Part shown: one piece after another, positions 6,073 to 33,858 of the stretch
Layout: every line of letters begins with the position of its first letter
How positions within the stretch are numbered: the first letter of the stretch is position 1
Source of the DNA: a virus
Taxonomy: Duplodnaviria; Caudoviricetes
Direction: 5' to 3' (one strand)
DNA: 33,858 bases
Virus record (IMG/VR): IMGVR_UViG_3300041584_000118
Span: 1 to 33,858 of that record
Program-made: the position numbers and the translations under genes
Notes under the pieces: model-generated
The model's input: only the letters and a program-made list of their open reading frames with translations
What the model was told of the DNA's origin: nothing
The model's database searches: none

Positions 6073-6411
6073 TTATTGATTTTCCTTCTGCTTAGAAGCT
6101 CTTTTGCGCCGCGCGGCGGGTGGGGCAGCTTGGGGCCGCACCAGGCCCTGCTTGCGGATGGTGGGCTGGCCACTGACCACTGCATTCATGTCGCCCACAA
6201 TTAGCCGAAGAGCTTCATTGCCCACCGTGCCCTTAAAAGTGTTTCGCCAGGCTTCTAATCCCTTAGAGGATGCATGCCAGCTGTTCTTTACCTTTAACAC
6301 TGCACGCCACCTTCTCCCATGTTCAGGGTATAGATAGTGGAAGTCTTGCAGAAGTTTTTCTTTAATATCGGCCACACTACACTGTATACCGTTCGCTAAT
6401 TGTTCACTCAT
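6073..6411 (-). CDS. First gene of the early operon, basic protein in a Cro-like position
   Basis: Directly follows the operator/promoter region; no clear HTH recognised. Confidence 0.6.
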   Translation of the reverse strand: MSEQLANGIQCSVADIKEKLLQDFHYLYPEHGRRWRAVLKVKNSWHASSKGLEAWRNTFKGTVGNEALRLIVGDMNAVVSGQPTIRKQGLVRPQAAPPAARRKRASKQKENQ

Positions 6412-6431
6412 ATTGTGCTATTTATTATTAT

Positions 6432-6472
6432 ATTACGTCGTAATTATTACGTGGTAATTATTACGACGTAAA
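6432..6472. promoter_or_regulatory. Three tandem palindromic operator-like sites
   Basis: ATTACGTCGTAAT (6432-6444), ATTACGTGGTAAT (6446-6458), ATTACGACGTAAA (6460-6472); 14-bp period in a divergent AT-rich region. Confidence 0.7.
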
Positions 6473-6521
6473 GTAATGCACTATTCTGTGCATTTGCAAA
6501 TAATTATGCACAATTTAATTC

Positions 6522-6743
6522 ATGTATTTTTCACAAATGACCGATCAGCAGTACGACCTTTATGGATTTAAGCACACGGGCGTTATCGCGCTTTACCTGG
6601 CCACGCGTGACATTAAGCTGATCCAAGCCCAATGCCGACATAAGGACATCTCGACGACAGACATTTACCTGCGAGACTTGGGGCTTTTTCTCGATCAGGA
6701 TGCGCTGGATATTTTCCCGGATCCCGGGCGGGATCATACCTAG
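6522..6743 (+). pseudogene. C-terminal remnant of a tyrosine recombinase/integrase
   Basis: YGFKHTGV...IQAQCRHKDISTTDIYL carries the box II His and catalytic Tyr region; only 73 aa, in-frame TAA at 6516-6518 upstream. Confidence 0.8.
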
Positions 6744-6778
6744 AAGCCAATACCGAATCAACTAACCATTAAATAAAA

Positions 6779-12374: not shown

Positions 12375-12410
12375 CGAAATTGCAGAGGGGGCGGCTGGGA
12401 TCACAGGACA
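12375..12410 (-). promoter_or_regulatory. Candidate phage late promoter (TGTCCT-N22-CAATTTCG) for the tape measure gene
   Basis: Same motif and spacing found at four gene-module starts. Confidence 0.55.
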
Positions 12411-12445
12411 AAAAAAAGCCCGGACGCGGGGTCCGGGCTTTTTTT
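12410..12445. terminator. Bidirectional intrinsic terminator ending the CRISPR transcript
   Basis: AAAAAAAAGCCCGGAC-GCGGG-GTCCGGGCTTTTTTT. Confidence 0.85.
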
Positions 12446-12480
12446 GTCGGTGGGTCAGTGGGGACACTGGCCACGGTGTA

Positions 12481-12917
12481 GTTTCGAAGGATATGTACAG
12501 GAATAGTCGTTTTGTTCGAGTGCATCTATTTCTTCAAGATGGTTTCGAAGTTTACCAGAAAAAAAGGGTAAATAATATAGATAGAAAGTTCGAGTGCATC
12601 TATTTCTTCAAGATGGTTTCGAAGATTTCGTTTGTTGACTTCTTCAATTTCATCTTTTGTGTTCGAGTGCATCTATTTCTTCAAGATGGTTTCGAAGAAA
12701 GAGTATTCCAGCCGTTCGGCGGGGTGCGTATAGGTTCGAGTGCATCTATTTCTTCAAGATGGTTTCGAAGGAAACCCTGGACCGCAGATTATTGGAATCA
12801 CTGGACAGTTCGAGTGCATCTATTTCTTCAAGATGGTTTCGAAGGCACTCCCACGGCTACCAGCCGGCATATCAGACGGGGTTCGAGTGCATCTATTTCT
12901 TCAAGATGGTTTCGAAG
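12481..12917 (-). CRISPR. CRISPR array B: 6 full 37-bp repeats, 5 spacers of 36-37 bp, plus a 24-bp spacer and a 9-bp terminal repeat remnant
   Basis: Repeat on + is GTTCGAGTGCATCTATTTCTTCAAGATGGTTTCGAAG, starting at 12514, 12588, 12661, 12734, 12808, 12881; remnant gtttcgaag at 12481-12489. Confidence 0.97.
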
Positions 12918-13068
12918 GGCAGCCAATTCCGTTTAACCGCAGATTCTGCCATTTCCATAGCCCTATTCCGTTTCAAAACCATCATGTCAAAGAAAATAAA
13001 AATGCTTCGCGAGTGGCGTTAACCCTCACGCTAAGGCTGCCGAACCAGCCCGAAATGTTGTCAGTGGA
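12918..13068 (-). ncRNA. Second copy of the putative tracrRNA/leader
   Basis: Matches 14134-14284 with 2 substitutions, both outside the anti-repeat. Confidence 0.75.
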
Positions 13069-13251
13069 TCACTCCACTATAAGTTCAATGCCGAATTTAC
13101 GACATTTATAGGCGATTTTTTCTTTCAGGCCATAATACCCCCAGTTTCGCAGCAGAAAAGGCTCGCCCTGCTCAAACTCCTCCTTGGCCTCCTCCTGCTT
13201 GGCGGTCTGCTTTTTCAGCACCAGCTGCGCGCACTTGTGCTTCACGCAGTG
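13069..13251 (-). pseudogene. Duplicated 3' fragment (about 60 codons) of the cas12f-like gene
   Basis: Matches 14285-14467 with 2 substitutions; fused to a half repeat at 13251-13263. Confidence 0.9.
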
Positions 13252-14133
13252 ATGGTTTCGAAGTCCCGTGTCAATACCAAGTTGACGAACAGTTCGAGTG
13301 CATCTATTTCTTTAAGATGGTTTCGAAGTACAAAGGGAATTCCACCTTCTAGTCTTTCATTCTAGTTCGAGTGCATCTATTTCTTCAAGATGGTTTCGAA
13401 GAAAAAGGGCAAGTACTTTCCCACTCCAAAGGAAAAGAGTTCGAGTGCATCTATTTCTTCAAGATGGTTTCGAAGGTCAAAGGCAAGAAAGAACTGCTTA
13501 TCTCAGAAGCTGTTCGAGTGCATCTATTTCTTCAAGATGGTTTCGAAGCTGGCTTGTTTTCCTAGTTTAATGAGGGTGTCTAGCAGTTCGAGTGCATCTA
13601 TTTCTTCAAGATGGTTTCGAAGACGAACAGGTAGAGGTTTCGCGGGTCGTGGGTTTCGGTTCGAGTGCATCTATTTCTTCAAGATGGTTTCGAAGAGAGG
13701 AAGATTACCGACATGGCCCGTAAGTCCAGAAGTTCGAGTGCATCTATTTCTTCAAGATGGTTTCGAAGTACAAAGGGAATTCCACCTTCTAGTCTTTCAT
13801 TCTAGTTCGAGTGCATCTATTTCTTCAAGATGGTTTCGAAGATAAAAAGTTTCCTACAAAAGGACTGGACAATATAAGTTCGAGTGCATCTATTTCTTCA
13901 AGATGGTTTCGAAGAGCTCTTTGGGTCGAGTATATACCAAGATTTTCCGAGTTCGAGTGCATCTATTTCTTCAAGATGGTTTCGAAGCTATACGGCCAAA
14001 GCTATACAAGAGTTGCTAAAAGAGTTCGAGTGCATCTATTTCTTCAAGATGGTTTCGAAGAGGCTTGAAACTACAGAAATTCGTGGATGCGGGCAGGTTC
14101 GAGTGCATCTATTTCTTCAAGATGGTTTCGAAG
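13251..14133 (-). CRISPR. CRISPR array A: 12 full repeats plus 1 partial, 12 spacers (11 of 36-37 bp, one of 28 bp)
   Basis: Repeats start at 13292 (1 mismatch), 13365, 13439, 13512, 13586, 13659, 13732, 13805, 13878, 13951, 14024, 14097; partial at 13251-13263. Confidence 0.97.
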
Positions 14134-14284
14134 GGCAGCCAATTCCGTTTAACCGCAGATTCTGCCATTTCCCTAGCCCAATTCCGTTTCAAAACCATCA
14201 TGTCAAAGAAAATAAAAATGCTTCGCGAGTGGCGTTAACCCTCACGCTAAGGCTGCCGAACCAGCCCGAAATGTTGTCAGTGGA
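14134..14284 (-). ncRNA. Putative tracrRNA plus short leader
   Basis: Anti-repeat at about 14188-14221 pairs with the 5' 29 nt of the minus-strand repeat using G-U wobbles and small bulges; hairpin 14251-14266 has loop GUUCGG complementary to the repeat 3' end CGAAC. Confidence 0.8.
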
Positions 14285-15388
14285 TCACTCCACTATAAGT
14301 TCAATGCCGAATTTACGACATTTATAGGCGATTTTTTCTTTCAGGCCATAATACCCCCAGTTTCGCAGCAGAAAAGGCTCCCCCTGCTCAAACTCCGCCT
14401 TGGCCTCCTCCTGCTTGGCGGTCTGCTTTTTCAGCACCAGCTGCGCGCACTTGTGCTTCACGCAGTGGTCGACGAGCATTGAGGAGTACTGGTGGGCCTT
14501 GGTGGTGACGTAGTTTTTTTCCTTTTCGTGGAACCGATCCAGCGCCGCCAGCTTCTTTGTTCGGCCCTTGCCGCCTTCGTTGTAGCGGCTGGCCGCTTGC
14601 AGCCGCTGCAAAGCCCGCTGAATCTGGACGCGGCGGTGCAGGTACTCCTCCGCCGTGCCAATCATCAGGGTTTTCTTGCCAATGTTGGCAATGATGGGGT
14701 AGTCGGCCGACAGCTCCGCCGCGCACACCTTGCCCTCGAGCAGCTTCACGGGCGTAGGGGGCAGCTTGAACACCGCCAGCAGGAATATCTTGCCTTTTTT
14801 GAGCTGGATGCTGCTATCGCACAGCTTGTACTCGCCCGCCAGGGCGGAGTCCAGGATCACCTCGTTGCCGCTCAGGTCGCGGCCAAAATAGGTCTTGAAG
14901 CTCAGGTCGAACAGCTCAAACGTATAGTTGCCATCGTCGCCCTTTTTCCAGGTTCGGAACGATGCCGAGGGCATCGGCATCGGGATGGTGTCGCGGTAAG
15001 TTCGCAGGGACCGCTTCCCCATCCTGACCTCCTGTAACTCCTGCTTCACGGTGCCGCTCACTACTGTGTTGAGGGCGGAGAGCATGGCCATGGGAGCCTC
15101 GCCCTTGAAGGCGCGAGAGAGCACCTGGTAAGTGGTGTTCTGGCGGCTGGTGGTCAGGATGCCGTCTTCGTCTTTGTGAACATCGGCCAGCTTGACCTTT
15201 TCTTCGTTCACAATATAGTGGATGCTCTGGATTTCGGACTGGATATACTGGTGGGTGGCCACCCAGTTGGCGGCCTTGTGGCATATCCGCTGCCACTCGT
15301 ATATTTTCTTGTATTTCTCCTTCAACTCGGCCTTATCGGCCACGTCGAAGTTGAGTTGTATTTTGCGGGTTATTACGATGTCTTTCAT
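14285..15388 (-). CDS. cas12f: Cas12f-like (type V-F/TnpB superfamily) effector, predicted nuclease-dead
   Basis: Colinear by eye with Cas12f1 motifs (G.RSL.TY..IP, IL...L.GEYK, GG.GR.KK, H.YS..LVD, FL.NW.YY.L..KI.YK...GI); RuvC-I GIDLG reads AAELS (E225), RuvC-II Glu reads K320, ends before the zinc ribbon and RuvC-III; adjacent to tracrRNA and array. Confidence 0.88.
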   Translation of the reverse strand: MKDIVITRKIQLNFDVADKAELKEKYKKIYEWQRICHKAANWVATHQYIQSEIQSIHYIVNEEKVKLADVHKDEDGILTTSRQNTTYQVLSRAFKGEAPMAMLSALNTVVSGTVKQELQEVRMGKRSLRTYRDTIPMPMPSASFRTWKKGDDGNYTFELFDLSFKTYFGRDLSGNEVILDSALAGEYKLCDSSIQLKKGKIFLLAVFKLPPTPVKLLEGKVCAAELSADYPIIANIGKKTLMIGTAEEYLHRRVQIQRALQRLQAASRYNEGGKGRTKKLAALDRFHEKEKNYVTTKAHQYSSMLVDHCVKHKCAQLVLKKQTAKQEEAKAEFEQGEPFLLRNWGYYGLKEKIAYKCRKFGIELIVE

Positions 15389-15391
15389 AAT

Positions 15392-15907
15392 TCAGGAAGT
15401 GTATTCTTTTAGGAACTCGTCTAGCCCATTTTCTCGTCCATTTATTTCCTCCCAAAAAATCCGGAGTTCCAGCAGCACGAACTCTGCCTGGGCCAACGTA
15501 AGCCGGTTCAGCTTGCCCAAAAGCTCAGCCGAGTCGTAGCCGTGCCGGGTGCCGCTGCCATCAAGGTCACCGGCCTCCTTTATTTCGGCGTATAGCATCT
15601 CCCTGGCCGGAATGCCCATGCCGCGCACGAGTGTTCCGTTGAAGGCGTCGAGCAGGCCGACCCATTCCTGGGTGCTGAAGCTGCCCTTAATCTCGCGGCG
15701 GAGCGTAAGCCGCCGGGCTTTCAGCATGGCCTCCACCATTTCGTCGAGCAGGTCGGTACTGGTGATTCCCGTTTCGTGCCGCAGGCGGGTAAGGATTTCG
15801 GCGGCGGCGCTGATGGTGGCCTGCTTGCCCACGTCGGGGAAAGCTTGGTACAGGTTTTCGAGCGCCACAGGCTCTACGTAAGCCTGGATTCCTTTTTTTT
15901 GAACCAT
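15392..15907 (-). CDS. Hypothetical 171-aa helical protein directly upstream of cas12f
   Basis: Stop is 3 nt before the cas12f ATG; function not recognised. Confidence 0.8.
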   Translation of the reverse strand: MVQKKGIQAYVEPVALENLYQAFPDVGKQATISAAAEILTRLRHETGITSTDLLDEMVEAMLKARRLTLRREIKGSFSTQEWVGLLDAFNGTLVRGMGIPAREMLYAEIKEAGDLDGSGTRHGYDSAELLGKLNRLTLAQAEFVLLELRIFWEEINGRENGLDEFLKEYTS

Positions 15908-15924
15908 TTTTTTTTGGGGTGGGG

Positions 15925-15956
15925 TATGGCCCCGCCGATGTGGCGGGGCCGGGTTG
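15925..15956. repeat. 32-bp hairpin-containing direct repeat, copy 1
   Basis: TATGGCCCCGCCGATGTGGCGGGGCCGGGTTG, identical to 16247-16278. Confidence 0.9.
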
Positions 15957-16017
15957 GGGGTACGGGCATCTTGCCAGTTGATCAGGAAATCAATATTTCG
16001 TTAGTCATGTACGGGGC

Positions 16018-16203: not shown

Positions 16204-16246
16204 AAATAATTCCCCGACGTTTTGCCCCGTTCGGGAGGGATTGGGA

Positions 16247-16278
16247 TATGGCCCCGCCGATGTGGCGGGGCCGGGTTG
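16247..16278. repeat. 32-bp hairpin-containing direct repeat, copy 2
   Basis: Identical to 15925-15956. Confidence 0.9.
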
Positions 16279-16282
16279 TGGG

Positions 16283-16531
16283 TTAGTTTTCAAGAGCGAA
16301 CACCTGCTCTATGACCCTTTCGGGGTCCGAGCAACTTTCGTAAACGTCTTCATGATCCTCGTAGGACCAATAAACTCCCCCTTGGGAGTCCAATTCTATT
16401 TGGATTTTTTCGTCCATTTCAATTTCTTCAAAACTCCAACCAGACAGCGCGTCTAGTTGGCTGGCACTGTACACAAATACCGTTTTGTCATTTCCATTTA
16501 AAAGAAGTTGTAATTTTTTTTTCGTTGTCAT
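16283..16531 (-). CDS. Small acidic hypothetical protein (82 aa), first gene of the CRISPR cassette
   Basis: ATG ORF after an AT-rich promoter-like region; strongly Asp/Glu-rich. Confidence 0.7.
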   Translation of the reverse strand: MTTKKKLQLLLNGNDKTVFVYSASQLDALSGWSFEEIEMDEKIQIELDSQGGVYWSYEDHEDVYESCSDPERVIEQVFALEN

Positions 16532-33366: not shown

Positions 33367-33858
33367 CTAGCGGTTATTCCAGGGGGCCGTTTGCCAGCTT
33401 TTTGCTTTGGCTGGTTTGAGGTCGGCGGCATCCTCGGGCTGCACACCGGCTTCTACTTTTGTAGCGTTGGCATACCAGCTCTGCAATACGCCATACTCAG
33501 CCCGGTGTTGTTGCCAAGCCGCAGCATCCGCCCGGAGCTGTGCTAGCTCTTGGGCGCTTACCTGCTCCTGCTCGGGCTGTTCTTCGGTAGCTACTACCTC
33601 GGGGGCAGTCTCTGCCTCATGGGCTGTTTCAATGGTTTCGGCTACCACGGGAGCTTCGTTAGCTAGCTCAGCTACTTCTTGCGTAGCTTCGGTTTCTACT
33701 GCTTCCGGAGCGGCTACCGCCTCGGGTGCAGGTGGGGTCGTAGCGCTCAGCCGATTACTAATCTCCTGCACATCGGCCCCCAATTCGTTGTAGTCTTCGG
33801 TCGTCAGCGACTCGCTCAGCGCCCGGTTCGATCTCGGAAAAAGGCTGGCCAGCAGCCC
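33367..33858 (-). CDS. Scaffold-like acidic Ala/Glu-rich protein (partial, open to the right edge)
   Basis: Frame is open from 33858 to the stop at 33367; low-complexity E/A/T/P tract directly upstream of the capsid gene. Confidence 0.6.
   Translation of the reverse strand, partial: GLLASLFPRSNRALSESLTTEDYNELGADVQEISNRLSATTPPAPEAVAAPEAVETEATQEVAELANEAPVVAETIETAHEAETAPEVVATEEQPEQEQVSAQELAQLRADAAAWQQHRAEYGVLQSWYANATKVEAGVQPEDAADLKPAKAKSWQTAPWNNR

Follow-up and report, generated by a model that had tools for sequence, protein, structure and literature searches.

A phage-encoded nuclease-dead Cas12f whose CRISPR array carries guides to the type I-B cas operon of a likely host and to one family of integrated elements

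Described systems and the phage locus

The best structural match to the protein considered here is the dead Cas12f of the Fta dCas12f-sigmaE system (PDB 9N9C; PMC13472631; 10.1101/2025.06.10.658880), and Hoffmann et al. (PMC13472631) also mention, as untested, dead Cas12f genes without rpoE that are associated with CRISPR arrays, suggesting repression of efflux promoters. The window, by which we mean the whole linear virus record IMGVR_UViG_3300041584_000118 (33,858 nt), from a phage of Bacteroidota-group bacteria, holds a locus of this array-bearing kind: a gene for a 367-aa nuclease-dead Cas12f (dCas12f), a scaffold resembling trans-activating CRISPR RNA (tracrRNA) and 18 CRISPR repeats. New here are the guide targets: the type I-B cas operon of a likely host, and small integrated elements that form one family. 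On this sequence evidence we propose, with a probability of about 0.7, that dead Cas12f, tracr-like RNA and array would bind TTR-flanked cas and element DNA without cutting it and block its transcription, using spacers supplied by the host.

With the Fta system the window protein shares homology over its whole length, the same C-terminal truncation and a dead RuvC, whereas its locus lacks rpoE and hth, encodes an anti-repeat RNA and an 18-repeat array in place of a single guide, has targets flanked by TTA rather than G, lies in a phage and falls outside the sigmaE clade. With the rpoE-less dCas12f genes (PMC13472631; the stage is drawn in PMC10691335) it has in common a dead Cas12f beside an array, an upstream structured RNA and a proposed role in repression; phage carriage, an I-B-like repeat and guides against cas genes and satellites are not described in the parts of these sources covered. 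The word 'phage' occurs once in the main text of PMC13472631 and 'prophage' never, and 'phage' is absent from the supplements searched. An earlier note, made from the letters of this DNA, had not recognised the configuration as a characterised one, a statement that needs narrowing, since CRISPR-associated dCas12f without rpoE had already been mentioned in that paper. The literature covered, outside which most subscription papers lie, turned up no report of the present configuration or of the scaffold-mimicking RimK ligases described below. Surveys of virus-encoded CRISPR systems by Al-Shayeb et al. may list such loci.

Vibrio phage ICP1 likewise turns an array, of type I-F, against an island-like anti-phage element, PLE (PMC11656645), but it does so with a complete and functional class 1 system that has its own adaptation module, whereas the window holds a single dead class 2 effector, has no cas1 or cas2 in its record and additionally targets the host cas operon. 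Nuclease-free silencing borne on mobile elements is described for type IV-A3 (10.1101/2023.06.23.546257), which acquires spacers with the Cas1/2 of a host type I-E system, an in-trans supply like that proposed here, and for type V-M Cas12m; IV-A3, however, is a multi-subunit, DinG-dependent plasmid system, Cas12m belongs to another Cas12 lineage, and both are described chiefly against plasmids. TldR (10.1101/2023.11.30.569447), too, is dead and RNA-guided, is carried by prophages and represses a host gene, but it derives from TnpB and carries one fixed promoter guide, whereas the window array is updated and multiplexed. The review of Koonin and Makarova (PMC11656645) lists ICP1, mini-arrays, RNA anti-CRISPRs (Racrs) and dead phage Cas9, and in the sections covered describes no phage effector that silences cas genes. 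By analogy, the variant in the window would work like the ICP1 anti-satellite CRISPR joined to in-trans silencing of the IV-A3 kind, with guides against the host cas operon besides.

A family of dead Cas12f proteins

14285..15388, minus strand: dCas12f, 367 aa, without zinc ribbon or RuvC-III (from its 9N9C and PADLOC Cas12f matches)

Translation of the open reading frame (ORF) and alignment to PDB entries bear out the 367-aa Cas12f-like protein that the earlier note had read. The best PDB match, 9N9C, is the solved 'nuclease-deactivated Cas12f' of Bacteroidota (E 1.5e-83, residues 6-366), and PADLOC Cas12f models match as well (E 3e-52); Pfam gave no match. In the alignments E225, within the motif AAELS, takes the place of the RuvC-I Asp of active Cas12f and K320 that of the RuvC-II Glu, and the protein ends in GIELIVE where the zinc ribbon would start. 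The traits of active type V-F1, an intact D-E-D triad and the zinc ribbon, are not present.

Among the best 120 of 561 homologs found, a set confined to lengths of 201-643, none has Asp at position 225, none has CxxC in its last 60 residues and none extends more than 30 residues past the end of the window protein; by this comparison, C-terminal truncation and a dead RuvC are a family trait. The earlier note had allowed for a recent pseudogene, to be recognised by close homologs that keep RuvC-III; the 120 include none, and that explanation is rejected. All full-length cluster members read have an intact frame, as do the sister copies compared, where synonymous changes outnumber replacements (16:11 and 13:11).

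A quick tree of 118 rows was rooted at its midpoint, after rows shorter than 300 aa and P0004, which duplicates L010, had been excluded. In it the window dCas12f groups with P0001-P0003 and L010 (support 100), within a set of 34 rows that includes three further viral members with arrays (support 98). All 55 sigmaE-linked rows fall on a separate 58-row side (support 93), with the window protein outside it. The locus belongs to the dCas12f protein clade and not to the sigmaE activator system. Arrays are present at five of the six other viral dCas12f loci.

The closest genome hit of the window protein (L010:1517-2800, 62% identical) is a chromosomal, single-guide version, with the same scaffold fused to a repeat end, which sits upstream of a TetR-like and RND-like efflux operon; the target of its guide was not found. 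Another phage dCas12f locus has repeated tracr-end/repeat units (L004:8085-8612) and resembles a step toward tandem single guides, and in two other viral contigs long degenerating arrays adjoin dCas12f (L006:11300-13150, L008:7250-8400).

A tracr-like RNA and an array in two blocks

14134..14284, minus strand: tracrRNA-like scaffold, then a ~50-nt linker/leader abutting repeat 1 (from folding and anti-repeat)
13292..14133, minus strand: array block A, 12 repeats of 37 nt and 11 spacers of 36-37 nt, 10 of them distinct (repeat/spacer parsing)
13251..13291, minus strand: 28-nt truncated spacer and 13-nt partial repeat; the spacer matches the small ORF upstream of host cas8b
12918..13251, minus strand: duplicate of the dCas12f 3' end, tracr and leader, 334 nt; a copy of 14134-14467 with 4 substitutions
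12490..12917, minus strand: array block B, 6 repeats (12514-12917), 5 spacers and a 24-nt terminal spacer common to sister contigs L093 and L094 (repeat/spacer parsing)
12410..12489, minus strand: degenerate last repeat and a terminator-like 15-bp perfect hairpin with T/A runs (sequence reading)

The tracr-like RNA that the earlier note had placed between gene and array is confirmed: the segment folds better than shuffles (z -2.9), and its anti-repeat (~14187-14214) pairs with repeat 1, with a duplex energy of -27.3 kcal/mol for the phage repeat against -9.6 for the host I-B repeat. Its 5' hairpins are conserved across the clade, recurring at most of the other dCas12f genes inspected by eye (also in L004-L006, L008-L011 and L014); Rfam returned nothing above gathering score. 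All 18 full 37-nt repeats counted in the note are there, 17 identical and one with a single change, but they form two blocks rather than one array of 17 distinct spacers: there are 16 regular spacers, 15 of them distinct (13329-13364 equals 13769-13804), and the 28-nt and 24-nt truncated ones stand before partial repeats. No self-targeting was found in the window.

A metagenome scan with part of the repeat recovered six contigs of the same phage group, and an exact repeat scan of viral contigs found none. In both blocks the sister contigs have distal spacers in common and differ in the tracr-proximal ones; spacers therefore seem still to be acquired, with polarity, at the tracr end. The junction of the tracr-leader duplication is the same in the window, L093 and L094 and different in L092, and both junctions use microhomology between repeat start and gene end. 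An assembly artefact is rejected by the four substitutions and by the recurrence of the window junction in two other contigs with different spacers. Each tracr-leader copy is an extra acquisition site and an extra tracr-repeat unit, in parallel with the path that Altae-Tran et al. (PMC10691335) propose, on which an array gives rise to duplicated single guides.

Guides against the host type I-B cas operon

The spacer pool comprised 36 unique sequences from the window and six sister contigs. Full searches of five genomes covered the arrays of the window, L092 and L094; in a sample of 301 family genomes the window and L092 arrays were searched, with two candidates scored per genome. Targets could be assigned to 18 of the 36 pooled and 8 of the 17 window spacer sequences: three to a type I-B cas operon (two and a truncated form), 14 to an element family and one to a host transporter gene. 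The assigned guides lie on both strands (7 sense and 10 antisense by our own count), which fits DNA targeting. The spacer searches called for in the earlier note thus gave targets and TTA flanks, and both target classes it had envisaged for a multiplexed binding-only effector, mobile elements and host genes, were found, with silencing as the presumed outcome. Matches to annotated phages and plasmids stayed at chance level, exact scans of viral contigs for two unassigned spacers found none, and related prophages gave no convincing spacer match; targeting of rival phages is accordingly unsupported within the prophages searched.

13549..13585, minus strand: spacer W_8, 37/37 across the start codon of host cas8b (G016:C199), 5' flank TTA

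A second guide, common to L090, L092 and L095 (L090_4), matches at 36/36 within a 51-codon ORF ~210 nt upstream of the same cas8b, again flanked by TTA, and the window's 28-nt truncated form of it matches at 28/28 at the same small ORF, with flank TTG. NCBIfam identifies cas8b, cas5b, cas3, cas1, cas2 and cas4 in this operon of genome G016 and PADLOC a WYL gene upstream; for cas7 and cas6 the assignment is by position alone. The two target sites are no more than ~470 nt from the inferred promoter of this ~10-kb operon, and a roadblock there would have a polar effect on every cas gene. A further spacer common to L090, L092 and L095 matches a CDF-like transporter gene of G016 at 37/37 (L133:9677-9713, G016:C466). 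These matches point to G016 as the likely host.

Upstream of the G016 operon (L120:16932-17027, G016:C199) two degenerate I-B repeats flank a short guide, followed by a 51-aa Cys-rich ORF and then cas8b. Apart from mismatches at positions 6 and 12, this host mini-guide matches a site 50 nt upstream that is flanked by TTA, and to judge from its sequence it is likely an autoregulatory CRISPR-like RNA for cas (compare 10.1101/2023.03.03.530964).

Guides against an integrase-primase-RimK element family

13623..13658, minus strand: spacer W_7, 35/36 to a RimK-like gene in G099:C76, flank CCA
14061-14096, 13915-13950 and 12771-12807, minus strand: spacers W_1, W_3 and W_13, translating to RimK-like peptides
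13402..13438, minus strand: spacer W_10, 32/37 to the element primase-helicase gene in G006:C2, flank TTA
13988-14023, minus strand: spacer W_2, matching the same primase-helicase gene family as W_10

Eight of the 36 spacers translate to RimK-like ATP-grasp peptides and four to primase-helicase peptides, both at 91-100% identity, and two match an integrase-like gene (11/12, and a weak 8/11). In shuffle controls at >=70%, 0/320 reached the RimK-like set, 0/320 the primase-helicase set and 2/320 the element loci. The RimK-like gene is patchy, occurring in 28 of 301 family genomes, and adjoins integrase, helix-turn-helix (HTH) or primase genes in 8 of the 9 larger regions fetched, in which the window capsid found no match; of two viral scans with the gene, one returned none and the other a single distant relative. 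We infer that these small integrated elements are satellites or defence islands that act on the phage. In the G006 copy of the element (L123:1999-5190, G006:C2) a 1064-aa tape-measure homolog stands beside the RimK-like gene.

33367..33858, minus strand: gene judged scaffold-like by its position immediately upstream of the major capsid gene, and truncated at the contig end; its product ends in KSWQTAPWNNR

Scaffold C-termini of the P22 type bind coat protein. The motif SWxxAPWN ends the scaffold-like gene in the five closest prophages among 30 loci examined, and it also ends 21 of 120 RimK-like homologs (27 of 120 with a looser pattern). For six of the eight RimK spacers every best-matching allele has the motif and for two only some alleles do, a count with some circularity, since an allele bearing the motif had served as the search seed. 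Three further scaffold-tail classes recur, by eye, as RimK tails: LTQADIxARE (L262, L263 against P0173, P0174), VSAxTQxAI (L257, L260 against P0200, P0214) and RYKGM (the G006 prophage against P0156, P0157). The tails compared came from window 33367-33858, L122:704-1741, P0139-P0258 and L235-L264. The RimK-like ligase is predicted to dock on the procapsid via its copy of the scaffold C-terminal motif, which would explain why its gene is the one most often hit; on these tails, the RimK-like ligases of the small elements could be capsid-addressed anti-phage or hijacking enzymes.

Flanking motif and source of the spacers

Four of the six full-length near-exact targets carry 5'-TTA, the other two being flanked by CCA (W_7) and AGT (the CDF-like transporter gene). 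The host mini-guide, read as an autoregulatory RNA, would give TTA as the host protospacer-adjacent motif (PAM) independently of the phage spacers. The phage repeat has the length of the host I-B repeat and is identical to it at 22 of 37 positions (mean 10 and maximum 20 in 20,000 shuffles), and host spacers are 35-38 nt long, those of the window 36-37 nt. TTA flank, host-like repeat and spacer length together point to the host type I-B Cas1/2/4 as the likely supplier of spacers in trans. Other array-bearing dCas12f members (L004-L006, L008, L009, L014) have ~36-nt repeats ending in ACAAC or ACAGC and 30-nt spacers; the window lineage therefore seems to have switched repeat, with an anti-repeat to match, to fit type I-B adaptation.

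Proposed mechanism and alternatives

The dead active site, the anti-repeat complementarity, the spacer turnover at the tracr end, the target identities and the TTA flanks are present in the DNA itself. From them we infer the formation of a complex that would bind, without cleavage, at target sites beside a 5'-TTR motif. Such binding would block transcription of the host cas operon and of element genes, with guides mostly against the RimK-like ligase, primase-helicase and integrase-like genes, and host type I-B Cas1-Cas2-Cas4 would likely write new phage spacers. A wider reading, to which we give slightly less than even odds, is that of an adaptive RNA-guided anti-CRISPR that borrows the host Cas1/2/4 to shut their own writer operon, and that also silences undescribed Bacteroidota satellites whose RimK-like ligase uses swappable scaffold tails to dock on and modify the helper procapsid. 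With transcriptional blocking, the stage of dead Cas12f beside an array, predicted as the ancestor of RNA-guided sigmaE activators but never assigned a function, would gain a testable role with a PAM and named targets. If true, it would be anti-CRISPR by programmable cas-gene silencing, where the routes reviewed use proteins or RNA decoys; its spacers expose a possible new satellite weapon in the capsid-addressed ATP-grasp ligase, and, as a natural multiplexed blocker of only 367 aa that uses a TTR motif, the protein is a compact candidate for CRISPR interference (CRISPRi).

Several observations weigh against transcriptional blocking with host-supplied spacers. Half of the pooled spacers (18/36) and 9 of the 17 window spacer sequences have no target, and two near-exact targets lack a TTR flank, among them the CDF-like transporter match with AGT, whose gene name is a reading of the sequence. 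The link to G016 as host consists of three exact spacer matches only; 0/6 visible G016 spacers match the phage, and G016 has no capsid homolog. The matches to the element mostly involve diverged alleles or exist at peptide level, and the element guides lie not at promoters but in gene bodies, on both strands, a placement at which a dCas12f roadblock may be weak. Spacers of other array-bearing dCas12f loci gave only 2/57 weak matches to element proteins, so the target set may be lineage-specific. The record, finally, is a fragment, and its missing part may hold cas1 or a sigma factor.

Because the phage repeat is related to the host I-B repeat and TTA is also the inferred host PAM, the array might instead be a mini-array, with host Cas6 and Cascade-Cas3 loading its CRISPR RNAs (crRNAs) to destroy elements and the cas locus and with dCas12f secondary. 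Hijacking of host effectors by viral mini-arrays is established (PMC11656645), but the mini-array repeats described there are identical to the host's, whereas here 15/37 positions differ, including the 3' handle and hairpin. The anti-repeat moreover fits the phage repeat far better than the host repeat, the window locus encodes its own effector and anti-repeat, and the sister copies compared keep dCas12f intact with synonymous changes in excess (16:11, 13:11); we regard a mini-array as unlikely. Recruitment of sigmaE in trans, starting transcription ~46 bp from the targets to yield antisense or truncated transcripts, would suit a protein of the same family and length as Fta dCas12f, whose start site lies ~46 bp downstream of the target-adjacent motif (TAM; 10.1101/2025.06.10.658880). 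It appears very improbable for a protein outside the sigmaE clade in a window without rpoE, with targets inside genes in both orientations; one query with a CTD-type sigmaE, moreover, drew a blank in G016, and among five genomes it gave just one match, weak and partial.

15392..15907, minus strand: 171-aa ORF ending 3 nt before dCas12f; weak ribbon-helix-helix signal (Pfam E 0.013, below cut-off)

The spread of element guides over gene bodies, with no strand or promoter bias, would also suit a complex that blocks element replication or excision, or one that recruits a partner to damage or occlude the target. The 171-aa protein could be such a partner, its ORF being 3 nt from the dCas12f start and retained in L003 and L091. 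The cas-operon guides, by contrast, cluster at the operon start, fitting a transcription block, and the 171-aa family (114 relatives, no named family) matched no nuclease family; it was not seen next to other dCas12f loci, for which reason the ORF is probably not a core part of the dCas12f system. This reading strikes us as improbable. Partial duplications, spacers that are truncated or unassigned and one that lacks a TTR flank are what a relic or passenger might show, if host Cas1/2 added spacers passively to an array with no selected function. Yet 14 of the 18 assigned spacers fall in one small element family and three where a single operon begins, the full-length cluster members read all keep the frame intact, and the tracr-leader unit has been duplicated with two different junctions, leaving a relic only a very slim chance beside the transcription block that we prefer.

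Phage genome and surroundings

Terminase, portal, capsid, tape measure and primase are identifiable among the window proteins (Pfam, PHROGs), and, of 301 genomes from the family (Spirosomataceae) to which the Persicitalea metagenome-assembled genome (MAG) L010 belongs, 55 have a capsid homolog, the closest at 81%. Judged by synteny, most of the phage genome is present in the record, with a part upstream of the scaffold gene missing. Among the window proteins scanned (20 by Pfam, 21 by PHROGs, with some small ORFs outside the scan), no match to cas1, cas2, cas4 or sigma-factor families appeared, in agreement with the earlier note. That note had also placed the locus inside a phage tail operon. 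The position is right, between a neck-type gene and the tape-measure gene; the operon is not, in that prophages syntenic with the window in G006 and G019 hold unrelated cargo in this slot and the cassette ends in its own 15-bp hairpin. No dCas12f was found in the five genomes with the closest prophages, in a search without positive control. A promoter scan gave results near chance, and a Bacteroidota promoter motif was not found upstream of the cassette.

6522..6743, plus strand: what is left of an integrase gene, its last 67 codons, with 87% identity to the integrase of a prophage

No repressor match was found in the window, and sister contig L095 (3940-4360) keeps, by eye, the apparent start of a repressor. 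The lysogeny-module deletions differ between the two, leaving the integrase remnant in the window (6073-6760) and the apparent repressor remnant in L095 (3940-4360). The module appears to have been lost twice, and the two different deletions suggest a temperate lineage from which both phages derive as lytic forms. Two near-identical 42-nt GC-rich hairpins (15920-15961 and 16242-16283) each stand 5' of a small ORF of the cargo cassette.

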